This document shows, piece after piece, positions 2,736-46,874 of a DNA stretch of 46,874 nt. The stretch is taken from sequence record PZ445467.1. One strand, written 5' to 3'. How positions within the stretch are numbered: the first letter of the stretch is position 1; every line of letters begins with the position of its first letter. The DNA comes from a phage. Both the position numbers and the translations under genes were made by a program. The notes beneath the pieces are model-generated. The model was not told the DNA's origin and made no database searches. It was given only the letters and a program-made list of their open reading frames with translations.

Positions 2736-4148
2736 ATGTCAAAAATTGATGCATTAAACGCCTATATACGCGACCGCGTGGCGAACAATAACCGGGCGCT
2801 TCAGCAGCAGCGGCTTTGTGCTGGCGGGAAGAATCTGGACCAGAAACGTGAGTTCATGTGGAAGGAACTGGGCTACCCGCAGGAAATAACCGCCGAGATG
2901 TTCCGCTATGCATACGAGCGACATCCAGCCGCCGCCGCTGGCATTAACCGCATTATTAATAAATGCTGGCAGAAATATCCTGAAGTGGTCGAAGATGGCG
3001 AGGATGATAAGAACTCAACGCCGTGGGAGTTGTCCATCAACGATATGATGAAGCGTGCCTATCCGTTCATCAAAGAGGCCGACAAGCGCAACGCCATCAA
3101 CAGATACTCCGCTGTTATCCTGCAAATCCGCGATGGTCGCCAGTGGAGTGAGCCGGTAGACATCACCAAAACCCGCCGCATTAAAGATAAATCCATTGTT
3201 CGCTTTATCCCAGTATGGGAAGAGCAACTCCGCGTCAGCGCATGGAATAACGATGAAACAAGTGAAGACTACGGCATGCCTGAGATGTACGAATATCAGG
3301 AAAGCGCCGTAGAGGATTTCGATAGCGACGGCAAGCCTGAGCGTTCCGTGCAGATTCATCCTGATCGCATTATCATTCTGGCAGAGGGTAGCTTCGATGG
3401 CAGTATGTTCAGTGGCATCCCGATGCTACGTGCTGGCTACAACAGCCTTATCGACATGGCTAAGGTTTCCGGTAGTTCAGCAGAAGGCTTCCTGAAGAAT
3501 GCCAGCCGTCAACTGGCTGTTAACTACACGAAGGACAACGTAACGCCAGCAAGCCTTGCACAGTCAATGGGTGTATCTCAGGATGAGCTTATTGACATCA
3601 TGAATGACAATATCGAGATGCTGAATTCTGGCATTGACGCTGCACTATTTAGCATGGGCGCCGAGACTCAGGTGTTATCCGTAACGCCAGCTGACCCGAA
3701 ACCAACATGGGAAGTGGCTGCCAACCAGTTCGCTGCATCAATGGCGCTTCCGTTCACCGTCATTTTCGGGCAGCAAACCGGACGCCTTGCGAGTGATGAA
3801 GACAAGATGCAGGAGGCGATGACTGCCAAGCAGCGCCGAGAAACATGGGTGGATTATGTTATCTCAATGTTCGTTGAGCGCATGATTCAGTTCGGCATCG
3901 TCGATAAAGCACCGGAAAATGGCTACAAGGTTAAGTGGGACGACCTGCTTGCTCCATCAGAGCTGGATAAGGCGGAGTTGCTGTCTAAGCTCGCCACTGC
4001 GAACAAGTCGTTCTTTGATGCTGGTCAATCTGCGTTGCTTACCGTCGATGAGGCTCGCGGCATGGTTGGTATGGAGCCGATTGAACTTGATGAAAGTTAT
4101 CGCGAAGACACGCCACCGGAAGATGAAAATGAAGATACTCCGGTTTAA
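2736..4148 (+). CDS. portal protein
   Basis: 470-aa ORF in the canonical position downstream of terL; size typical of portal proteins. Confidence 0.7.
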
Positions 4149-5098: not shown

Positions 5099-5104
5099 TA
5101 TCAG

Positions 5105-5182
5105 CATACACAGAACGAATATTATTATCGCATACACAGAACGAATATTATTATCGCATACACAGAACGAATATTATTATCG
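5105..5182. repeat. three perfect tandem copies of a 26-bp unit CATACACAGAACGAATATTATTATCG
   Basis: read directly: units at 5105-5130, 5131-5156, 5157-5182; intergenic between convergent genes. Confidence 0.9.
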
Positions 5183-5217
5183 CATAGCACAATATCTCTA
5201 CGACGCTGAATATTGTT

Positions 5218-10328: not shown

Positions 10329-10806
10329 ATCACAAATCATGCGCGTGATTATGAATCACCCCGGTTCAACGCGCGCATATATTGAGAAGCATTGCGGAGG
10401 AAAGCATTCAAGCACCACAACGCATCGTTTGCATGAGATGCTTGCGCTTGGATTCATTCGCCGCGAGAAGTCCGTGATTCGCGGTGGGAAGTGGCAGTAT
10501 AAATATTTCATCTCTGATGATGCAGCTGGTATTGATGATGCTATTAAGTGCCATTTGCTTGATAACGCTGGCGCAGAGGTGAAAGAAATCAGCGTAGCCA
10601 CTGGCATTGATTACCGAATCGTGAAAAGCCGCATCCGCATTATGTTTCATAACGGTGATGTAACGCGAAGATATGACCACCACAAGAAGCTGTGGCGTTA
10701 TTCTTGGCATGAGAAGGAAGTTAACGTCAGCAACCTGTTTAATTCACTTCTTCGCAATGTAAGAGGTCGTCATGGGGAAAGCCAAACGCAAGAAGCAAGA
10801 GTATGA
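10318..10806 (+). CDS. putative DNA-binding protein with two winged-helix-like repeats (162 aa)
   Basis: ATG 7 nt after GAGGAG; two related segments (IMRVIMNHPGSTRAYI / KCHLLDNAGAEVKEISVATGIDYRIV). Confidence 0.4.
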   Translation: MDYKSQIMRVIMNHPGSTRAYIEKHCGGKHSSTTTHRLHEMLALGFIRREKSVIRGGKWQYKYFISDDAAGIDDAIKCHLLDNAGAEVKEISVATGIDYRIVKSRIRIMFHNGDVTRRYDHHKKLWRYSWHEKEVNVSNLFNSLLRNVRGRHGESQTQEARV

Positions 10807-34215: not shown

Positions 34216-35253
34216 TTAAAATCCTTCAATTGGAGTTGGTTTGTGTTCTGTTTTTTCTTCCTGCGGTTCTGGCTGCTGTGGTTGCGGTTTAGCCAGTTTT
34301 GCAGGATTGAAATTATCCTGCGGAGTTATTACCACAGGAGATAATTGCTCATCATTGATAAAAGACTCAATGCGATCATATTCAGCGGCAGAAGCAGCCA
34401 GAGAAGGCCAGATTGCGCGAATTTTATCTTTCAGGTTATCAGGTATTGATTTTGCTTCTTCCTTCAGGCCTTCCATGCCTTTTGCTGCAGAAAGCTGAAG
34501 TCTTGAGCGCCATGACTCAAACTCTTCGTCAACTTTAACGCCAGAGTCAACCCATTTGATGAGTCCGCGACCATGCGCCTCTCCAATATATCCATGGCGA
34601 ACACTTTCACGACCAGACTCAAAGAATATTGGGCGTAGTTCTTCTGGTAATTTTGTGAACTCCTGAATTTTTCCTCCATCGTGCATCATCATGCTCACGG
34701 TCATCTCGAACATGAAATCTTTCTCGCACACTGGTTGCAACCCAAGTGATACAGGTTCCTTCGGGTTTGCGAAATCAGTTTTCTGACGTGCGCGAAGGCA
34801 GACAATGATATGCATATTGCTTTGTAGCATGGCATTCATGAACTTCTTGTGTTCAGCTTTGGCGCGCTTCCAGTCAGCCATCTTTTTACCGTTAAGCAGC
34901 GGCTTTTCAGCAATCTCCGTGCAACTGCCTTCACCTTCCCATTCATGCGAACCTGAATCAATAACAAGAACCTTAACGCCGGCAGCCTGAAACTCTTCAA
35001 TGGCCTGACGGTAACGGGCCGGGCTGAATGGAGCATACATATCAGCGTGCAGGAATTTGCCATCAAGGATGTTTGAGTACAGGCGACCGCGACCGTTTTC
35101 AGTATCAAGGAATCCGATTTCTTCTGGTGAATCAACCATCCCGCGAGCCAGCTTAAGTGCGCTATATGTTTTGCCGCTACCTGACTGGCCTGAAATGCCG
35201 ATGACCACGCGAGAACCTGAACGCTCTGCTGGTTTAATATTGAGAATACCCAT
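34216..35253 (-). CDS. RecA-like/AAA ATPase (Sak4-like recombination protein, putative)
   Basis: Walker A GISGQSGSGKTY; ATG 35253 is 8 nt after GAGG; track ORF extends to 35271. Confidence 0.5.
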   Translation of the reverse strand: MGILNIKPAERSGSRVVIGISGQSGSGKTYSALKLARGMVDSPEEIGFLDTENGRGRLYSNILDGKFLHADMYAPFSPARYRQAIEEFQAAGVKVLVIDSGSHEWEGEGSCTEIAEKPLLNGKKMADWKRAKAEHKKFMNAMLQSNMHIIVCLRARQKTDFANPKEPVSLGLQPVCEKDFMFEMTVSMMMHDGGKIQEFTKLPEELRPIFFESGRESVRHGYIGEAHGRGLIKWVDSGVKVDEEFESWRSRLQLSAAKGMEGLKEEAKSIPDNLKDKIRAIWPSLAASAAEYDRIESFINDEQLSPVVITPQDNFNPAKLAKPQPQQPEPQEEKTEHKPTPIEGF

Positions 35254-35263
35254 TTGCATTACC

Positions 35264-35452
35264 TCACTCAAATTCTACAAAATCACCACCAACCATTTCG
35301 ACGATAATGAATCCAGATTCATCATCATATGTTGCCTGCCATATAGCTCCAGTTTCGTCGCTTATTTTAAAGGTACCACCAAAAAAGTCAGCGCTATACC
35401 ACTCATCTTCTTTAAATCTTTTGCTTGTTGAGCTTGCACAAAATAATTTCAT
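35264..35452 (-). CDS. hypothetical protein (62 aa)
   Basis: ATG 35452 preceded by GTGAGGTG. Confidence 0.4.
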   Translation of the reverse strand: MKLFCASSTSKRFKEDEWYSADFFGGTFKISDETGAIWQATYDDESGFIIVEMVGGDFVEFE

Positions 35453-35469
35453 TTGCATCACCTCACTAA

Positions 35470-39432: not shown

Positions 39433-39507
39433 AGCTACTAACCTTTGTTGATGTTTCTACGTCAGTTAGCTTATACTCAATCTACACCAACAATCAAGGG
39501 TCAATTT
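39433..39507. promoter_or_regulatory. divergent promoter region (helicase leftward, primase rightward) with two ATCTAC motif copies
   Basis: TTGATG 39448-39453, TATACT 39472-39477; motifs 39453-39465 and 39478-39491. Confidence 0.5.
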
Positions 39508-40461
39508 ATGAGATATGACTGGAAGGAAATCGAGCCAAAAATGATCGGCAACTGGCAGGCTGCCATCATGTCTATCGTCAATGTGGATAGCAGAGTTTTC
39601 AATGGCAAGCACCAGCCATGCCCTCATTGCATGGGGGTTGACCGGTTCCGTTGGGATAATCACTTCGAAACAAAAGGCGATGGCGGCGCAATCTGCAATC
39701 AGTGCGGTTCCGGCAGCGGCATGAATTGGCTGATGAAACTCTCCGGAATGAGCTTTCCTGAAGCACTGGAGGCGCTTGGTGGATTCCTGAACATGCACCC
39801 GCGTGAAAAGCTGGAGGCAATCAGGAAAGAGCTACCGAAGATAAATCACAGCGATGACTTCATCACCGAGCAGGAAGTCGCAGCAATCATGGCTAAAACG
39901 ACTCGTGTCGCGATGAATGAGTGGACTTTGATAAATGGTATTGGTTGCGACGTTAACGTCACCAGAGGCAAATCTGGAGAACTTATTGCGGTTGAGATGA
40001 TGCGAGCTGACACAATGAAACTGTGCAACGTGGCATTCATTGGCATGGATGGTGATTCAATCAGAACGTTTTTCCGCGCAGGATACAACAAGGACTCAGC
40101 CATCAACGGCAAACTCACGCGCGGCGCGATAAGCCCAATCGGAGAAGACAACGGGAAGTTCATTTACCTGGTATCTGATTATGCCGATGCGTGGAAGTGC
40201 CATTACTTCACTGGCGCGCATGTCTGGTGCTGCTGGTCGCCGGAAAACATGTGGGAAGTAATGCGCTCTGTTAGCGATGAAACGAAGGCGAGGTTGCGCT
40301 GCATAGTTAATTATAAATTCGACGAACTGTGTGCAGCAGAAAACGCAGGGATTCCGGTGATGCTTCCTGATGATGCCGACACTATCAGGATGGCAAAGAG
40401 AATCAGGAGAAAGATTTATGACGCTGGCGAGTTGATAGAGAAAATGTCAGTTAGAAGATAA
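39508..40461 (+). CDS. putative DNA primase / Zn-ribbon replication protein (317 aa)
   Basis: CPHCMG...CNQCG zinc-binding pattern near N-terminus; AAGGG SD; divergent from helicase. Confidence 0.45.
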   Translation: MRYDWKEIEPKMIGNWQAAIMSIVNVDSRVFNGKHQPCPHCMGVDRFRWDNHFETKGDGGAICNQCGSGSGMNWLMKLSGMSFPEALEALGGFLNMHPREKLEAIRKELPKINHSDDFITEQEVAAIMAKTTRVAMNEWTLINGIGCDVNVTRGKSGELIAVEMMRADTMKLCNVAFIGMDGDSIRTFFRAGYNKDSAINGKLTRGAISPIGEDNGKFIYLVSDYADAWKCHYFTGAHVWCCWSPENMWEVMRSVSDETKARLRCIVNYKFDELCAAENAGIPVMLPDDADTIRMAKRIRRKIYDAGELIEKMSVRR

Positions 40462-40490
40462 AAGAAACCCTCCGACTGGAGGGTTTTTGT
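40462..40490. terminator. bidirectional rho-independent terminator
   Basis: 9-bp stem AAACCCTCC/GGAGGGTTT with GACT loop, followed by TTTTT. Confidence 0.7.
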
Positions 40491-40795
40491 TATGCTTTGA
40501 TGTTAACTTTTATTGCGAACACTTCCACCGGGTCAGGACCGAAATGTGGGTGGGTGATGGTCTTAACCGTCCATCCATCGTATGGGATATCAATACGCCT
40601 GGATTTATCGTCCTTCTTTGGATATCCTTTTGTGATAATTAACCTTTCGTACTTCCTTCCAATCTGTCCGCTATCTTTAAAGTTAATAAGGCGCTTCTTC
40701 CAGTAGTCATTAAAAAGGCGATACTCTTCCGTTTTATCTCCGCGAATCATGGCATCGAAGTATTCACCTTTGACGGCAAGTTGCAGGTTAGCCAT
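40490..40795 (-). CDS. ASCH/PUA-like domain protein (putative)
   Basis: 101 aa from ATG 40795; GEYFDAMIRGDKTEEYR resembles ASCH N-terminal motif. Confidence 0.4.
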   Translation of the reverse strand: MANLQLAVKGEYFDAMIRGDKTEEYRLFNDYWKKRLINFKDSGQIGRKYERLIITKGYPKKDDKSRRIDIPYDGWTVKTITHPHFGPDPVEVFAIKVNIKA

Positions 40796-41051
40796 TATTT
40801 CCCTCCAGAATCCAAACTGAATTACCAATACGACTGTTATTTAAATCCTTTGACACGCGGCCATCCTTACAAAGAGAAATCAGAACCTTCCGTAACTTCG
40901 CTGCTGTCCATTCATCATCAGGAAATTCATTCACCATTGATAGACGCAAACTCCACGTAGCCACTGAGAACTTACGAAAAATTCCAAGTTTCTCCTCCTC
41001 AATGGATTTTCTCTTTCTCATCACATATAAAACCTTATCCTTCACATCCAT
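40788..41051 (-). CDS. hypothetical protein (87 aa)
   Basis: ATG with AAGGAA/GAGGG upstream. Confidence 0.45.
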   Translation of the reverse strand: MDVKDKVLYVMRKRKSIEEEKLGIFRKFSVATWSLRLSMVNEFPDDEWTAAKLRKVLISLCKDGRVSKDLNNSRIGNSVWILEGNNG

Positions 41052-41061
41052 TTCCTTACCC

Positions 41062-41253
41062 TCACTTAATCATCATCTTTGAAATATCAACGTGACCAAC
41101 ACAAAATCTGTGCCAGTAATCATCAAGCATGTGGTAATTAGAGCGAATCCATACTTTGTTAATCCGGCTCCAGAAAAACCACGTCGAATAACCATGCGGC
41201 CTGAAATGCCATAAACCTTCTGAGCGACAAATTTCGCCTGATATTGTTCTCAT
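41062..41253 (-). CDS. hypothetical protein (63 aa)
   Basis: ATGA overlap with upstream gene stop. Confidence 0.4.
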   Translation of the reverse strand: MRTISGEICRSEGLWHFRPHGYSTWFFWSRINKVWIRSNYHMLDDYWHRFCVGHVDISKMMIK

Positions 41254-42806
41254 TTCAACCTCGGATTTATGTGAACAGTATTCCCGATAAATACGCAGTA
41301 ACCATCCTCTTCAAGTGATGGCAATACACTTGACCTGAGTCGGTCATAAATTTTAGGTATCCCTTTGAATGGTCGTACGTTTTTAAGTGAATCATAAAGC
41401 CACTTCACCGTTACGTTTGTTTTTCCTTTCTGAGCGGCAGAGCGTAGCTTTTCGGCAACAACATCAAATTCAGAACGCTCACCAGCATATCCATTTGATT
41501 CCACGGCGTCGGTGAATGTTTTTGTTAGTGCGTCATAAACACTGATGGCGCGACTAATTTCATTTTCACCGATAATCTTTGATTGCTTTCCTCCATCACA
41601 CCAGTTTTCAGCAGCGTGAAATATTGCTGCCAGACGTATTATTTGCTTATCAGCTTTACCCATCGCGCCACGAAGAAGGACGTGATCCCACTTACCGCCG
41701 GGAAGGAAGTTTTTCTCCCACTGATTTCGTAACAGGCCAATCATTCTTGCTGAGTCATTGTGAAGCGTCAGTTTTGTTTTTTCTGCTGACACAACATTAT
41801 GTATAAATCTTGCATATTCCGACCTCAAGCTATCTGGCATTGGCTTGCTTACAGGGCAATCATTAACCATGTCCCAGTGTTCGCGATAGCCAAGCATTGA
41901 TTGCTCTCGCAACATCAGGAAACGTTCAGAAAGACCGTTCCCCCTGTCGCCAGCGGCAAGAATGGCATCAATACTTTCATCCTGCGCAATCACACTTATG
42001 TTTCCAAGCACGTAACCAGATGAAACGCCACGACCAACACGAGCAGAACCAATGAATCCGCCATCCCAGCCCTTCAGGATGACTTCGGCGTTTGCCTTTC
42101 CACCTTCTTTTCCGTAAGAGAGGCCAAGACATGTGTTAAGGACGCTTGCCTCGTCACTTATCAGATTAAAAAAACCACCTTCATGAATGGCCTGATGCTG
42201 GACAGCCTCCGGAGTTGCGTCCGTCAGTGGATATGTGATCGTATAAAGCTCCTCCAGCTTCTCCTTTTCGCGAGCAATATCATCGCCGATTAGTGCCTTT
42301 GCATTCTGATTACTGGCCTCTTTGTATGCCTTCATCAACTCTTCAATGCGAAGATTTATTTTTATGATCTGCTTTTCCATCTTTTTGGAAAGGTTGTCAT
42401 ATTCAATCTTCACCGGATTCATGTGCATTGAGTTGATGGCAGTTTTCCCTGCTGATGGAGGCTGAGAAGTAACCACGTAAAGAGAAACTGGAAGCTCTGA
42501 ATGGTAATACTCAACGCTAAAGTTTCTCGTCATTGCGCTGGCAACGCACCCAAGTAAATGCATGAACGATGTATTTATTGGGAACTGAACAGCACGAGCT
42601 GCAGCGATTGCATAACGAGACAGCAAATCTGTTCTGTGCTCACTGGTCAGTTCTGTTTCTGAGTACGTTACATCACGCTCCTTACCTTCCTTGATATCCA
42701 GCCACATATTTGAGCTTGGTGTCATGCCATGATGGAAGGCGACGCGAGCAGGAGATACTTTCAATTCCCTTGCTTCGTTGAAGATATCTTGAGCTGTGAT
42801 CATCAT
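41250..42806 (-). CDS. replication-associated protein (518 aa; possible P-loop NTPase)
   Basis: large ORF heading the leftward replication module next to the origin-like region; SAGKT P-loop-like segment. Confidence 0.45.
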   Translation of the reverse strand: MMITAQDIFNEARELKVSPARVAFHHGMTPSSNMWLDIKEGKERDVTYSETELTSEHRTDLLSRYAIAAARAVQFPINTSFMHLLGCVASAMTRNFSVEYYHSELPVSLYVVTSQPPSAGKTAINSMHMNPVKIEYDNLSKKMEKQIIKINLRIEELMKAYKEASNQNAKALIGDDIAREKEKLEELYTITYPLTDATPEAVQHQAIHEGGFFNLISDEASVLNTCLGLSYGKEGGKANAEVILKGWDGGFIGSARVGRGVSSGYVLGNISVIAQDESIDAILAAGDRGNGLSERFLMLREQSMLGYREHWDMVNDCPVSKPMPDSLRSEYARFIHNVVSAEKTKLTLHNDSARMIGLLRNQWEKNFLPGGKWDHVLLRGAMGKADKQIIRLAAIFHAAENWCDGGKQSKIIGENEISRAISVYDALTKTFTDAVESNGYAGERSEFDVVAEKLRSAAQKGKTNVTVKWLYDSLKNVRPFKGIPKIYDRLRSSVLPSLEEDGYCVFIGNTVHINPRLK

Positions 42807-43042
42807 GAAATCCTTTTTACGTAAACCATATCTTTGTCAGGGTATCCAACCTTTGTTGAGAATTTCATGCCTTCATTCCTGCGCATGAAATAGTTTAATG
42901 CGTTCCTCAGGCTTGCAATACCTCCAAACCTCTTCGAGTCAATCATCACAGTCTCCCCTACTGAAACCGCCGACAACCCAGAAAGAGCTGCATTCTTTTT
43001 GCCATACTTATCAAGTTTCACAAAATCCTCCAACAGCAACAA
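42803..43042 (-). CDS. hypothetical protein (79 aa, TTG start)
   Basis: track ORF; no ATG near start and no SD; stop overlaps downstream start. Confidence 0.3.
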   Translation of the reverse strand: MLLLEDFVKLDKYGKKNAALSGLSAVSVGETVMIDSKRFGGIASLRNALNYFMRRNEGMKFSTKVGYPDKDMVYVKRIS

Positions 43043-43486
43043 ATTATGATTGAATCATATCATAAGTATTGAATCATGCAACATCAAATACGACTCACGT
43101 GGGTAACGTGGGGCAGCCGTGGGGAACATCACCTTCCCCACGAACTTTTACTCTAAGTATATGTAATATAATATAATTATTATTATTTGGGTTAATGGGT
43201 AATATTATTATTCATATTATAGATAGTAATTAACATAATATTAACAAATGGATTATTTGAATATATTTATAAGGGGATGGGTATGAAATCTGCCCCTTTT
43301 TACCCACGAAAAATAAAAACATTCAAATCAATAATTTACGATGAAAAACGTGGGGCAACCAACCTTCCCCACGACCTGCCCCACGAGCAAAAATTTACCC
43401 CACGGGCACGTTTTTAACGCATCCCTGTTGACGTAGAATCATCGTTGATGTAGATTGAACTCATCGAAACAAACGAGGGTGAAGAG
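43043..43486. promoter_or_regulatory. origin-like region: two clusters of CGTGGGG/CCCCACG heptamers flanking a ~155-bp AT-rich tract, plus divergent promoters
   Basis: heptamer copies between 43098-43142 and 43301-43407; AT-rich 43145-43300; TTGACG 43428-43433 and TAGATT 43451-43456; inverted motif copies 43429-43439, 43446-43457. Confidence 0.5.
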
Positions 43487-43672
43487 ATGAACAAAGAAAG
43501 CACGTACAGCATCGACCAGATGAAGTTGTTCAGCGATATATGCATGGCATTGTCACAACAGGTTCCAAGTCTACCTGCTGATATGCGCTCAAATGCCATC
43601 ATTGATGCGGCAAACATGATTTGTGAGGCATATGCTATGACTGAAGATGAATATAAGGCATCGAAGAAATGA
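43487..43672 (+). CDS. hypothetical protein (61 aa)
   Basis: ATG after GAGGGTGA. Confidence 0.5.
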   Translation: MNKESTYSIDQMKLFSDICMALSQQVPSLPADMRSNAIIDAANMICEAYAMTEDEYKASKK

Positions 43673-43764
43673 CAGGCGCATCATTCGAGCTTATCTCCAG
43701 TCTGGTTATCGTGGCATTCATCATTATCGCAGTGGCGGTTTCTAAATCAGGGTATAAGGAGTAA
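43669..43764 (+). CDS. small membrane peptide (31 aa)
   Basis: ATGA overlap; MTGASFELISSLVIVAFIIIAVAVSKSGYKE. Confidence 0.3.
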   Translation: MTGASFELISSLVIVAFIIIAVAVSKSGYKE

Positions 43765-43767
43765 CAA

Positions 43768-43950
43768 ATGGCAAAGACTATCTATCGTCGCGAGAAACTG
43801 GAGCCTGAACTCGGTCACGTTGGCGCGCAAAACTTTATGAGCAAGCAGGCACGCAATGCAATGGAATCTATACGCGTGAATCGCGTTGTGCGCGTGTTTA
43901 ATGGTGAAGGTAAGCGAAGAGTAATGGATGAACTGATTATCGTATTTTGA
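43768..43950 (+). CDS. hypothetical protein (60 aa)
   Basis: ATG 6 nt after AAGGAG. Confidence 0.5.
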   Translation: MAKTIYRREKLEPELGHVGAQNFMSKQARNAMESIRVNRVVRVFNGEGKRRVMDELIIVF

Positions 43951-43986
43951 CATCGATTCAGCAGGCTTATTTCTAATGGTGATGAT

Positions 43987-44220
43987 ATGGAAAAAGTAAA
44001 AACATACGAGTTCTGGTTTGTGCAGAACAAAATGTATGCAAGCAGGACAATCAAGAGAGTCAGCTGGTGGAATAAGTGGTTAATCCTCTCCGGCTGCATC
44101 GTGCTGGCAAAGTGCAAATTCAAAGCGATTGACATCACCGGTGAAGATGCACTCACAATCGCAAAGATTGAGTTTGAAGAAGATGGCTATTACGAAGAAA
44201 TTATGGGGGTTAGGGTATGA
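43987..44220 (+). CDS. hypothetical protein (77 aa)
   Basis: ATG start; one hydrophobic segment. Confidence 0.45.
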   Translation: MEKVKTYEFWFVQNKMYASRTIKRVSWWNKWLILSGCIVLAKCKFKAIDITGEDALTIAKIEFEEDGYYEEIMGVRV

Positions 44221-44495
44221 GTGAAGAATCACGCGGAACAGTAAAAGCAAAAACATACTCAGTACCGAGAAGCGCAATTCCGCATCCTCCTGATGGTGAT
44301 GGATATTACGTGACTGTTGTTGAGATTGCTGACTACATGGCCTGCCTCAACAGAATCACAGAAATGAGCGTCGAAAACTATCACATGAAGAATCGCATTG
44401 CAGAGCTTGAGTCTGCATTAAATCGCCATTATGAGTTACCTGACGTTTATGATATGGCAGTAAAGCAATTCGAAAGCCTGGCTAAAAGTGAATAG
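44217..44495 (+). CDS. hypothetical protein (92 aa)
   Basis: ATGA overlap with previous gene. Confidence 0.45.
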   Translation: MSEESRGTVKAKTYSVPRSAIPHPPDGDGYYVTVVEIADYMACLNRITEMSVENYHMKNRIAELESALNRHYELPDVYDMAVKQFESLAKSE

Positions 44496-44558
44496 CTACC
44501 CGTTCATATTAATTATCAGTGCGCTCTATGTGGCGCACGCTTTAGTGGAGATGTATGG

Positions 44559-44945
44559 ATGAGCAATAGATATATTTATCACTACAACGCAATATCTGTG
44601 GGCGGCGCGTCATCAGTGGCTGGCATCGCTCAGTTGACATTCAGAATTAAATCGCAAGAAGATGTCGAGATGCTGAAGAGTTTGATTGGCCGTGACGGTT
44701 TCACAGCAGTAGCAATCGCATCTCTTTCATATCTCTGGCGAGAGAATGATGACGAAGGGTATGACGCAACAAAATTCGACCAGGCGTTTTTGATTAACAA
44801 ATTCTACGAGCGTTATCCGCTTCCTGAATTTAAGAGTGATTCAGAGCGAGCAGAGGCACTTGGTTACTTCATGACTGGTGCAGAATTACAGCGACTTGGA
44901 AAGTTTATCGAATACAACGATGAGGATGATAGTGATGATTACTAA
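44559..44945 (+). CDS. hypothetical protein (128 aa) with acidic C-terminus
   Basis: ATG after GGAG. Confidence 0.5.
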   Translation: MSNRYIYHYNAISVGGASSVAGIAQLTFRIKSQEDVEMLKSLIGRDGFTAVAIASLSYLWRENDDEGYDATKFDQAFLINKFYERYPLPEFKSDSERAEALGYFMTGAELQRLGKFIEYNDEDDSDDY

Positions 44946-45045
44946 ACAACAACGACGCCGCTACACCACTGGCGCTAAAATCTTCCTTACTGTTTATGTG
45001 CTGGCACTGGTGGCGGCTATTGCAGGAGTTGTGCATTATGTTTAA
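44935..45045 (+). CDS. small membrane peptide (36 aa)
   Basis: MITKQQRRRYTTGAKIFLTVYVLALVAAIAGVVHYV; overlaps both neighbours; speculative. Confidence 0.25.
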   Translation: MITKQQRRRYTTGAKIFLTVYVLALVAAIAGVVHYV

Positions 45046-45343
45046 TCAATTATCTGATTTTTATAAAGCATATTCAGACTGGGTTGCCGCTGGCGCAACA
45101 GAAGGCAAACCATTTAGCCGTCACGTCGGGCTTTGTGGCTCTATTTTTCTTTACCTTTCTATGAAAGGATATCCAATAAAAGATAGAAAAATTACTCTTG
45201 AGATGATGCGAGCGCAGTTTGTTAAGGCTGGTCTTGACCGTGAGTACCCGTTTAATAACCAAAAGAACCCATACCGTATGGAAAGCATTAATGGGCTGAT
45301 TCACACCAACAAGAATCGCATCCAGTGGGTTAAAAAGGAGTAG
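45038..45343 (+). CDS. hypothetical protein (101 aa), flanked by 19-bp direct repeats
   Basis: ATG 45038 after AGGAG; track ORF starts at 44996. Confidence 0.45.
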   Translation: MFNQLSDFYKAYSDWVAAGATEGKPFSRHVGLCGSIFLYLSMKGYPIKDRKITLEMMRAQFVKAGLDREYPFNNQKNPYRMESINGLIHTNKNRIQWVKKE

Positions 45344-45585
45344 TGCATTATGTTTAACGATATCAGTGACGCAATGCAAAACATGTGGGAATGATACTGG
45401 AACAGCATGAAGACGTGTCACTACATGATGGTACAGATAGGTAATTACATTGAGGTTGTGCCTGATACTGGTGTTCACAACATTAAGTGCATGTGTTCTA
45501 CGAGGGCTTTTGCGAATGCAAACAACTAAGCAGAAAGTCTGGCAACTCGCCAAACAACACGAATTAGACGATTTCATCGCGAAGG

Positions 45586-46110
45586 TTGCAAAGACATTCC
45601 CTGACGCGCTTGAAGTCGTTCATGTGCAGACGCGAAATGAAAATGCATGGTGCTACACAAAAAATCATACAAATGGTAGATGAAATGAAGCTAACAAAAA
45701 AACAACGCGAAGAGCTACGCATGAAGTTCGGTGGTCGCTGTGCTTATTGTGGGTGTGAGCTACCCGAGAAAGGTTGGCATGCAGACCATGTTGAACCAGT
45801 GCTACGTAAATCTGAGCAGTGCATGAAGGCAGCGGCGAAAGGGATTTTCAAGCTGAAGGCAACCGGTGAGCTATATCGACCAGAAGCCGAGCGACTGGAA
45901 AACCTTTACCCTGCGTGCGCCCCCTGCAATCTGATGAAAACTTCCTATTCCCTGGAAATGTTCAGGAAGCAGGTATCTCTTCAGGTTGCTCGTGGGCGCA
46001 AAAGCAGCATGAATTTCCGCACTGCAGAGCGTTTCGGTCTTATCGCCGTGGTGGAGAAACCAGTTGTTTTCTGGTTTGAGAAATACCAGGAAGAGAACGA
46101 AAAAAAATAA
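45586..46110 (+). CDS. HNH endonuclease (terminase-associated type); start uncertain (45622 or 45685 likely)
   Basis: CAYCG...HADHV...CAPCN HNH zinc-finger pattern; lies just upstream of the putative terS. Confidence 0.65.
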   Translation: MQRHSLTRLKSFMCRREMKMHGATQKIIQMVDEMKLTKKQREELRMKFGGRCAYCGCELPEKGWHADHVEPVLRKSEQCMKAAAKGIFKLKATGELYRPEAERLENLYPACAPCNLMKTSYSLEMFRKQVSLQVARGRKSSMNFRTAERFGLIAVVEKPVVFWFEKYQEENEKK

Positions 46111-46206
46111 ATGTGTTTATGATGCTCTGTTGGCAAGCGCGATAATGATGGTGTACAATAAACGCATAACCACCATTGCTTTCACTCATATCATCACCCA
46201 ACCTTT

Positions 46207-46233
46207 AACCCGCCTTGTGCGGGTTCTTTTTTA
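46207..46233 (+). terminator. rho-independent terminator
   Basis: stem AACCCGC/GCGGGTT with 5-nt loop then CTTTTTT. Confidence 0.6.
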
Positions 46234-46254
46234 TCTACGTCTATGTGTTAAAAT
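46232..46254 (+). promoter_or_regulatory. promoter-like element with ATCTACGTC motif upstream of putative terS
   Basis: motif 46232-46241; TGtgTTAAAAT extended -10-like 46245-46254. Confidence 0.35.
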
Positions 46255-46290
46255 TAGCGTATGTGAGTTACTCAAAGAACACAAAAAGAC

Positions 46291-46734
46291 ATGGCGAATC
46301 CAAATCCAAAACACAAGTTTTCCTCTACAAATCAACCGCCTCCGCGCGGTAAGAGTTATCGCACAGTGCTGCTTGAGGCGCTTCGTGCTGCAAATACACC
46401 GATGAATGAGATTGAATTCGTCACGTATTACATCAATAGGGCCATGACATGCGAAGACGCTCAGGCAACTGGTATGCTTCGAGAGATATTCCTGCGGCTC
46501 AACCCAATTCCTAAGCCTGTAGCTCCTCCTGTGGAGTTTGACTTCCCTGCTGACGGAACTCCGGTTCAGAAAATGGATGCAATCATCAAGGGTGTATCCA
46601 CTGGCGTTGTGCCTGCTGACATAGGCAAGATGATGGCTGACATTATCAAGTCTGGCCTTGATATTCAGGAAATCACCGAACTCGCCGCGCGACTTGAGCG
46701 ACTGGAGAAATTACTGGAGCAGCAGAATGCGTGA
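46291..46734 (+). CDS. putative terminase small subunit (147 aa)
   Basis: position between HNH and terL if the genome is circularly joined; N-terminal NPNPKHKFS...PRGKS basic segment. Confidence 0.4.
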   Translation: MANPNPKHKFSSTNQPPPRGKSYRTVLLEALRAANTPMNEIEFVTYYINRAMTCEDAQATGMLREIFLRLNPIPKPVAPPVEFDFPADGTPVQKMDAIIKGVSTGVVPADIGKMMADIIKSGLDIQEITELAARLERLEKLLEQQNA

Positions 46735-46874
46735 TGTTGTTACGTGGTGCTTTGTGGCATCTATCGCTATGAGCATGATCAGCGTCATTACGCCATCGGG
46801 AGATTTTGCTGTAAGCATATTCGGTTTTATGTTCTGGATATCAGGATGGGTTATCGCTTGGGGGCGGATTCGAT
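46727..46874 (+). CDS. small membrane protein, 3'-partial at window end
   Basis: ATG overlapping terS stop, GGAG SD; hydrophobic; if circular the ORF would end at window position 11. Confidence 0.35.
   Translation, partial: MRDVVTWCFVASIAMSMISVITPSGDFAVSIFGFMFWISGWVIAWGRIR

Follow-up and report, generated by a model that had tools for sequence, protein, structure and literature searches.

Gene X, a small accessory gene of a siphophage genome (record PZ445467.1; the whole stretch analysed, 46,874 nt, is called the window here), is flanked by two nearly identical copies of a 22-nt sequence in which one gene ends and the next begins. We consider that this locus is probably the outcome of phage recombination at a duplicated gene junction, followed by a cross with a genome resembling that of Escherichia phage Bas78. 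The evidence includes comparisons of alleles with and without X among related phages, of the window with Bas78 base by base, and of the right-hand junction of X with the same junction in other X-bearing phages.

Sequence matches identify the window as a Jersey/K1G-like (Guernseyvirinae-like) siphophage type, the relatives of which infect Escherichia and Salmonella. Its first 24 kb matches Escherichia phage Bas77 at 98.3% identity and Bas78 at 97.7%; these two are BASEL phages, about 98% identical to the window. The X locus is a rightward operon of small early accessory genes, with genes for an HNH endonuclease and the terminase directly downstream, and three of the small genes, all on the plus strand, are chained by an identical stop/start overlap. 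Gene A (44935-45045) codes for a small protein of membrane type, 36 aa long (MITKQQRRRYTTGAKIFLTVYVLALVAAIAGVVHYV; phrog_9340, E 8.5e-18) and is found in every relative, with X present or not; the allele in the window is only 84% identical to that of Bas78. Gene X (45038-45343) encodes a small helical protein of 101 aa that resembles gp3 of phage N4. Gene Y (45350-45529) is a conserved 59-aa gene (phrog_5407) and is interrupted in the window by an in-frame TGA at 45392-45394, codon 15 of Y, where Bas78 has CGA. Beyond the TGA the Y frame continues undamaged and translation may restart at Met-20 (45407), and premature stops in Y have arisen independently in other phages too (the relatives L033 and L046). 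A 14-codon ORF (MFNDISDAMQNMWE) at the second repeat copy had been taken in the first-pass annotation for the remnant of a displaced gene start; the ORF exists, but it is the normal start of Y, intact in relatives and stopped here by the TGA, and is therefore not a remnant. The N-termini of X and Y have only MFN-x-(L/I)-S-D in common, and the MFN part of this likeness is imposed by the junction. No promoter-like site was found on the plus strand between 43456 and 46130, and the one terminator-like site was a weak match inside X.

Copy 1 of the repeat (junction J1; 45024-45045, plus strand; AGGAGTTGTGCATTATGTTTAA) is the last 22 nt of gene A, the 3' end of which reads …GGA GTT GTG CAT TAT GTT TAA. 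It contains the Shine-Dalgarno motif AGGAG, the start codon of X (ATG at 45038) and the stop codon of A (TAA, 45043-45045), which overlaps that start (ATGTTTAA); the ATG of the next gene is in this way embedded in the end of A, 9 nt past AGGAG. Copy 2 (junction J2; 45336-45357, plus strand; AGGAGTAGTGCATTATGTTTAA), a 3' end of gene A of the Bas77/78 type joined to the 3' end of X, supplies the stop codon of X (TAG, 45341-45343), a Shine-Dalgarno motif and the start codon of Y (ATG at 45350). The copies agree at 21 of 22 positions with a spacing of 312 nt, which bears out the near-identical direct repeats of the first-pass annotation and extends them by 3 nt to the left; the ORF and the coordinates likewise agree with its statement that the repeats bracket a 101-aa ORF at 45038-45343. 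What is repeated is a translation junction of 13-22 nt, composed of a Shine-Dalgarno motif, a start codon and an overlapping stop codon, and the repeat is thus a duplicated gene junction.

A pair of 22-mers with at most one mismatch is expected 0.003-0.004 times in the whole window (one in 300 shuffles; analytic estimate 0.004), and none of 100 separate repeat-search shuffles gave such a pair. When up to three mismatches were allowed, the 22-mer had only these two copies in the window, and a 13-mer with up to one mismatch had a single extra match, at 10637. Only two gene-flanking cases were found when the window, Bas77 and Bas78 were scanned for close direct repeats; the boundaries of the 128-aa gene upstream of A and of Bas77_0006, where the Shine-Dalgarno regions are weakly alike, were not counted as repeats. 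A search for inverted repeats between 44980 and 45400 returned only an internal, 71%-complementary palindrome at 45150-45191 and none at the segment ends, and an attC-like structure was absent from both ends of the X segment.

We used 125 matching phage records in GenBank to examine whether related phages carry an allele without X. Eleven of them align across the whole region and have X, and about 114 align in two pieces. Records without X span approximately 211 bp where the window spans approximately 523 bp. They are shorter by 312 bp, which is the spacing of the repeat, and their alleles contain exactly one junction copy, through which A directly overlaps Y. The single junction of Bas78 (46211-46232, 22 nt) aligns to both copies in the window. 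With the exception of an engineered seszw mutant, all 125 records measure approximately 211 or 523 bp at this site, and X is the only gene that uses the slot between A and Y among them. Overall, more than 100 related phages lack X and about 14 have it. The presence/absence polymorphism for which the first-pass annotation had suggested comparing relatives was found, bounded exactly by the repeat; the opposite outcome that it had named, relatives without any such polymorphism and repeats alike by chance, was not observed.

Both states of the site occur within narrow groups of phages. Within the genus Skatevirus, SeSz-2 has X and seszw does not, and the same difference separates phages that are 98% identical overall, namely the window with X and Bas77 and Bas78 without it. 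Rare variants of the Y start are common to X-bearing and X-less alleles. The presence of X was not associated with flank haplotype on either side: the fraction of nearest neighbours in the same state was 0.457 for the A flank compared with a permutation mean of 0.47, and 0.48 compared with 0.48 for the Y flank, in a test whose power is limited by flanks of 90 and 180 nt that are themselves recombining. The family-wide polymorphism may have arisen by gain or by loss.

By its profile match to phrog_2510 (E 6.5e-30), X is a member of the N4 gp3-like family, a family without an assigned function. A tblastn search with X gave matches in 249 phage records, N4 gp3 included, and the family alignment has 16 invariant columns; the residues common to X and the family are F8, Y12, W15, G19, A20, G31-L32-C33, P71-F72, H89, N91, R94 and W97. 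Pfam had no match for X, a profile search against PDB sequences gave nothing credible (best E 0.39), and a Foldseek comparison of its AlphaFold2 model, which is all-helical with a moderate pLDDT of 73, gave no meaningful match in the PDB (best E approximately 8). The GC content of X is 0.41 and that of its neighbours is 0.41-0.43.

The homologues of X form 74 clusters, almost all of 106 aa, and X in the window is 5 residues shorter than all of its relatives, ending …WVKKE where they end …WVK(K/R)EWQHYV; an exact look-up found no record of the 101-aa form. The …EWQHYV end of the 106-aa protein is a second copy of the …HYV end of A, and carries the start of Y. At the other end of the gene, the last valine codon of A is GTG in an IMG/VR relative (L020) and X there starts with MCK rather than MFN, so that the first three codons of X are set by the 3' end of A; its last three codons are likewise dictated by the junction copy. 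Distant homologues, which include N4 gp3, multi-copy genes of phAPEC8/phi92-like phages, and genes of N4-like Erwinia and Achromobacter phages and of Rhizobium phages, are of equal length and share the invariant residues but have different termini, which suggests that a complete gene was captured, with junction sequence replacing no more than its extreme ends. The amino acid sequence of X in the window is 86-88% identical to those of four relatives (P0055, P0058, P0062 and P0064) and only 50% identical to that of L020, and on this sequence comparison it is nested within a family whose other members have the long form of J2.

Another way to view the locus is as part of a mosaic, read against Bas78. 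The backbone at 39505-44226 is 99.15% identical to Bas78; at 44227-44464, part of a 92-aa gene, unrelated sequence stands in place of that of Bas78; and identity is again high, at 97.7%, in the intergenic stretch 44465-44550. The 128-aa gene at 44551-44937 is absent from Bas78, the stretch of gene A at 44938-45045 is 84% identical, and the stretch of gene X at 45046-45335 is absent. From 45336 to 46874, which takes in copy 2, Y, the HNH gene and the terminase gene, the window is 99.74% identical to Bas78 over 1539 nt. High identity to Bas78 therefore resumes at 45336, which is the first base of copy 2. The block that is foreign to the Bas77/78 backbone (44551-45335, plus strand) consists of the 128-aa gene (44559-44945), the divergent A and X, and the L076 lineage has this block too, followed by Y; over 44484-45654 its nucleotide identity to the window is 88.8%, with a single gap.

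The two copies of the repeat carry marks of these different sources. Copy 1 has GTT, inside an allele of A that is 84% identical to that of Bas78, and copy 2 has GTA. The right-hand junction of the window (AGGAGTAGTGCATT) is the X-less junction of Bas78, GTA for the first valine included, and among 23 unique alleles and the IMG/VR junctions the GTA variant is confined to Bas77 and Bas78. We compared it with J2 in other X-bearing alleles from eight GenBank phages, six IMG/VR contigs and the Logan contigs L076-L078; all of those examined, at least 13, have a J2 of the form GGAGTGG(C/A)A(G/A)CATTATGTTTAA and an X of 106 aa. This family-type J2 (GGAGTGGCAGCATTATGTTTAA) is 1 nt longer than the end of A and matches it only over 13 contiguous nt and GGAGT; nearly all X-bearing alleles have the same 13 nt, non-signal positions included. 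No joint of the window type was found elsewhere when metagenome and IMG/VR contigs were scanned for the pattern. The joint in the window is 1 nt shorter than the family junction, which places X and Y in the same frame. A frame test showed that an A end with GTA gives an X that terminates in …KKE, and that GTT or GTG would fuse X to Y; X thus stops at the TAG at 45341-45343 only because Bas77 and Bas78 use GTA for that valine. The first-pass annotation had read the flanking repeats as the signature of a cassette insertion. Its repeat-bounded polymorphism stands, but the near-identity of the copies does not mark a recent insertion, as the copies come from different lineages and J2 is diverged elsewhere. 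We infer from these sequences that the near-perfect repeat is the recombination scar of a later cross, and not the footprint of a fresh insertion.

The explanation that we favour proceeds in two stages. The junction is dual-coding and hence very conserved, and would act as a short island of homology; recombination at it could add, remove or exchange X while every gene stays translationally coupled. The family-wide duplication would have arisen once, through the capture of a full-length N4 gp3-like gene at two joints of short homology that were staggered, so that about 21 nt of the end of A became duplicated. Later, in the lineage of the window, an X-bearing donor with an L076-like block (the 128-aa gene, A and X) would have been crossed with a Bas78-like genome without X, the crossover point being the 6-nt AGGAGT at 45336-45341, where the ancient homology between the tails of X and A begins on its left side. 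Such a cross would have swapped X's own tail (GGCAGCATT…) for the tail of A (AGTGCATT…), which is 1 nt shorter, and by the same step would have regenerated a near-perfect 22-nt repeat, put X in the frame of Y and shortened it to end at …KKE. The J2 of the donor is assumed here from the family consensus, the closest X-bearing block being only 89% identical, and the window-type joint is represented by one sequence.

Several genes of these phages could carry out this recombination. The recombination genes of the genome, as given by the annotation of Bas77 and Bas78 and by a Sak4-like match, are exonuclease VIII, a Sak4-like ATPase, SSB and RusA. The model predicts that in crosses of X-less with X-bearing phages, such as Bas78 with Bas80, exchange points would be concentrated at GCATTATGTTTAA/AGGAGT, with occasional joints of the window type, and that the 22-nt repeat would now predispose X to precise loss by single-strand annealing. 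An exchange point of 6 nt is short for annealing-type recombination, and may instead reflect heteroduplex repair of a joint that was initiated in Y. A further reservation is that repeat-bounded cassettes are few, with one or two in each genome; these phages differ mostly by replacements that lack boundary repeats, and most of the indels relative to Bas77 and Bas78 are replacements or have a boundary overlap of at most 6 nt.

Other origins for the repeat can be weighed against the same observations. Both copies hold a Shine-Dalgarno motif and an ATG, which are constrained signals, and two translation-start contexts could in principle have come to look alike by chance or convergence, the copies being historically unrelated. 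However, only about 0.004 such pairs are expected per genome, the 13 nt that are identical in nearly all X-bearing alleles include positions outside the signals, and in relatives the ends of the indel coincide exactly with the repeat. This last finding, a presence/absence polymorphism with the repeat as its boundary, refutes the chance reading, to which we give practically no weight. That the collections searched contain no second instance of the joint or of the 101-aa X, and that Y has an unusual nonsense codon, would also fit an artefact, whether a chimeric assembly of two co-occurring phages or sequencing errors at the junction and at the TGA of Y. Against this, AGGAGT (6 nt) is all that the inferred parents have in common at the switch, where it is followed by 3-4 nt of heterology with an indel, and since a 6-nt match is far below any assembler k-mer, an assembly-graph chimera should not have been able to make this joint. 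The frames are moreover coherent, in that X gains a stop codon and the Shine-Dalgarno motif and ATG of Y are intact, and the stops of L033 and L046 give the nonsense codon in Y independent precedents. An artefact is on these grounds very unlikely.

Two further readings accept the repeat as real and differ on how it came to be nearly perfect. Short direct repeats 312 bp apart can undergo gene conversion, and homogenisation of the right junction against the left within one genome, with no second parent, would also give a near-perfect repeat. Yet conversion from J1 would have copied GTT and not the GTA specific to Bas77 and Bas78, and the window is 99.7% Bas78-like from copy 2 onward while the sequence to the left is not, so that we regard conversion as most improbable. 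The remaining reading is that X was freshly inserted into the A/Y junction, either by a mobile element or by one staggered double joint, and that the copies are a new target-site duplication. It draws on the 21 of 22 positions at which the copies agree, on the identity of copy 2 with the X-less junction of the closest relative, and on the second cassette of this genome (35251-35467), which may well be such an event, made by recombination. It is at odds with the origin of the copies in different lineages (GTT in the 84% allele of A, GTA in Bas78-like sequence) and with the nesting of X in a family whose other members all have a diverged J2 with 1 extra nt. Since the 128-aa gene and the A allele are foreign to the backbone as well, it was a block that was exchanged and not a cassette. 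Neither does X look like part of a mobile element, as it lacks a Pfam match and terminal inverted repeats, and the annotation of the closest relatives contains neither a transposase nor an integrase. We thus consider a fresh insertion of X unlikely, and retain recombination at a duplicated junction with a later cross as the probable explanation for this locus.

The second cassette lies on the minus strand, where the first-pass annotation had pointed out a similar duplicated start context; that likeness holds, and it too brackets a gene that is present in some phages and absent from others. The upstream copy (35450-35467, read from 35467 to 35450; AGTGAGGTGATGCAAATG) contains a Shine-Dalgarno motif and ATG-CAA-ATG before the cassette gene (35264-35458), which encodes 64 aa from the first ATG or 62 aa from the second and belongs to phrog_4788, with no function assigned. 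The downstream copy (35251-35268, read from 35268 to 35251; AGTGAGGTAATGCAAATG) contains the stop codon of the cassette gene (TGA, 35266-35264) and the start of the ATPase gene (34216-35259). The copies agree at 17 of 18 positions with a spacing of 199, where 0.04 pairs of 18-mers with at most one mismatch are expected within 1 kb. Relatives differ by 199 bp exactly at the repeat, and the empty allele in AB4P2 contains exactly one copy (ttagtgaggtgATGCAAATGggtatt).

The gene of this second cassette sits between the genes for exonuclease VIII and the Sak4-like ATPase and, among phage records, is found at this site only in Bas77, Bas78 and the window. Its GC content is 0.365 compared with 0.466 for the neighbouring ATPase gene. 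Homologues have different neighbourhoods: in Klebsiella phage RCIP0071 the gene is beside genes annotated only as hypothetical, and in the Kagunavirus Ro145clw it follows a helicase gene. The native start (gaggtgATGgAtATGAAg) and end (GAGTTCGAGTAA) of the cassette gene show microhomology to the recipient site, the counterparts there being the ATPase start (gtgaggtgATGCAAATG) and the stretch that directly precedes it (ttAGTGAgg). Two joints at these microhomologies, with the right joint upstream of the left in the recipient, would duplicate the intervening 18 nt. From its sequence, we infer that the second cassette is a younger example of the process that gave rise to the X cassette, with the original duplication still 17/18 identical.

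In its logic, the X cassette is closest to the shuffling of PeSL elements in T4-type phages, in which an ORFan lies between two promoter-terminator motifs in one phage and a relative has a single motif (Arbiol et al. 2010, PMC2839356; see also Comeau et al. 2014, PMC4122927). X likewise lies in a plastic accessory region and has on either side a copy of a motif of which X-less relatives have one; in the PeSL relatives the single copy is chimeric, and recombination between copies explains both loss and gain and supplies ready expression signals. Excised mini-circles with the ORFan and one motif copy are a further feature of PeSLs. However, the PeSL motif is about 100 bp long, consists of a sigma-70 early promoter and a stem-loop terminator and is present in many copies, whereas the repeat at X is 13-22 nt long, has two copies and lies inside an operon with no promoter near X. 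The X cassette is therefore not a PeSL. As for the enzymes involved, phage recombinases act on short or diverged homology during lytic growth and are a source of mosaicism, as described for Rad52-like recombinases of temperate lambdoid phages, with homologous stretches of hundreds of bp (De Paepe et al. 2014, PMC3945230). The X locus, in comparison, has a 6-nt match that borders on 13 identical nt, and any recombinase here is a candidate only; relaxed recombination by phage exonuclease/annealase systems is the likely enzymology. An initial literature search on direct repeats and microhomology at phage gene boundaries gave nothing specific.

X also has features in common with other classes of inserted DNA. 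Morons, known from lambdoid phages (Hendrix and Juhala), are dispensable genes with a promoter and terminator of their own and often an atypical base composition. X resembles a moron in being dispensable and in lying between two genes, A and Y, that are adjacent in about 114 records, but we rejected this assignment, X having no promoter or convincing terminator and a GC content like that of its neighbours. A transposon or IS was considered for the direct repeats that flank X and for the empty site with one copy, and was rejected too: there is no transposase, there are no terminal inverted repeats, and the 22-nt repeat is itself a functional junction. Unlike the duplication made by an IS, the two copies do not match perfectly in any other X-bearing genome, where they differ by an indel. 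An integron cassette was rejected for the lack of an inverted-repeat structure at either end of X and of an integrase in the annotation of Bas77 and Bas78, in which no transposase is annotated either. Insertion by a homing endonuclease was set aside because X is not a nuclease by Pfam and phrog comparison and because the HNH gene is unlinked to X; the HNH gene, which ends at 46110, is also in X-less Bas77 and Bas78 and is missing at that position in X-bearing Akira. With the N4 gp3-like proteins, X agrees in length, invariant residues and location in the early accessory region, and it differs from the others in that its termini are set by an A-type junction in this phage group. We conclude that the X locus is a case of ordinary phage mosaicism, and that it involves no new type of element or mechanism.

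We also considered whether the unit of an accessory gene plus one stop/start junction is genuinely mobile, in the sense that annealing between the two junction copies excises it as a small circle or deletion product and that it re-enters genomes that have the junction, and find this unlikely. If the unit were mobile, it would be a siphophage counterpart of the T4-type PeSL mini-circles that works through translation signals, and would offer phages a general way to acquire ORFans that are coupled from the outset to the translation of an operon; the two cassettes, and adjacent early genes that share start motifs, would then be its footprints.

The X locus provides a clean, base-resolved example of how accessory genes enter and leave the genome of a lytic phage. 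The exchange takes place at a very short, dual-coding stop/start junction, with the consequence that the signals for translation are intact in every recombinant. A near-perfect flanking repeat, as this locus also shows, is not necessarily the mark of a new insertion. For the engineering and comparison of BASEL-type phages, the 22-nt repeats make it likely that X is lost precisely, and X and the 62-aa gene, which differ between near-identical phages, could underlie phenotypic differences between them.

Gene Y (45350..45529, plus strand; 59 aa; phrog_5407), which lies downstream of gene X, the N4 gp3-like gene (45038-45343) that is present or absent among relatives, carries an in-frame premature stop in the window (R15*, 45392-45394). 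An independent premature stop, W17*, interrupts the same gene in L033 and L046, two IMG/VR sequences of VSt472-like phages. In all three, the conserved downstream frame from Met-20/21 (MKTCHYMMVQIG…) is unbroken. Because the frame after each premature stop is intact, the sequences suggest that the ~15 N-terminal residues of Y would be dispensable, with translation restarting at Met-20/21.

Upstream of gene A (44935..45045), a 128-aa gene (44559-44945; phrog_27229 and phrog_29890) is missing in the BASEL phages Bas77 and Bas78, where only 8 bp stand in its place. It is carried by L076, of the donor-like lineage with X, and is cut to 85 aa in L020, another relative. In Bas78, gene A is served by a Shine-Dalgarno region that the 128-aa gene takes over in the window. 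Bas77 and Bas78 have an extra 204-nt gene, Bas77_0006 (Bas77 2964-3167), that the window lacks (at ~1710), and the Shine-Dalgarno/start regions at its boundaries, GGGTGATTATG versus GGTGGATTAATCATG, are only weakly alike. To the left of the 128-aa gene, the neighbouring early genes 43987-44220 and 44217-44495 have an N-terminal motif in common and also share a repeat of 16 nt (AAAAGTAAAAACATAC at 43992, AAAAGCAAAAACATAC at 44243), and their L020 counterparts (460-696 and 693-1160) both start M-x-KVK-x-YE. This pair may reflect an older start-context duplication, or the two may be paralogues.

Elsewhere in the window, a 26-bp unit (GCATACACAGAACGAATATTATTATC) is repeated almost perfectly in slightly more than three tandem copies at 5103-5187. 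Three copies of a CGTGGGG…CCCCACG stem-loop motif (ACCTTCCCCACGA) are located between divergent transcription units, at 43118-43146 and 43349-43386; one is terminator-like by score, and the stem-loops may be regulatory elements.

One record among the relatives, OR544125.1 ("Acinetobacter phage vB_AbaM_AB4P2"; L002/L021), matches these siphophages of Escherichia and Salmonella at 81-93% identity in each of the two regions compared; its host and morphotype label looks doubtful.

The 152-aa ENA protein P0069 joins an N-terminal XRE-type HTH (PF01381, PF12844) to an X-like C-terminal part, starting at …KLADFYKAYSDW; the fusion is natural or else the product of mis-assembly. The phAPEC8-like phages (~150 kb; for example OR786310.1 and OP172791.1) have up to six X-homologue sites per genome, and the X family is therefore expanded in these phages.
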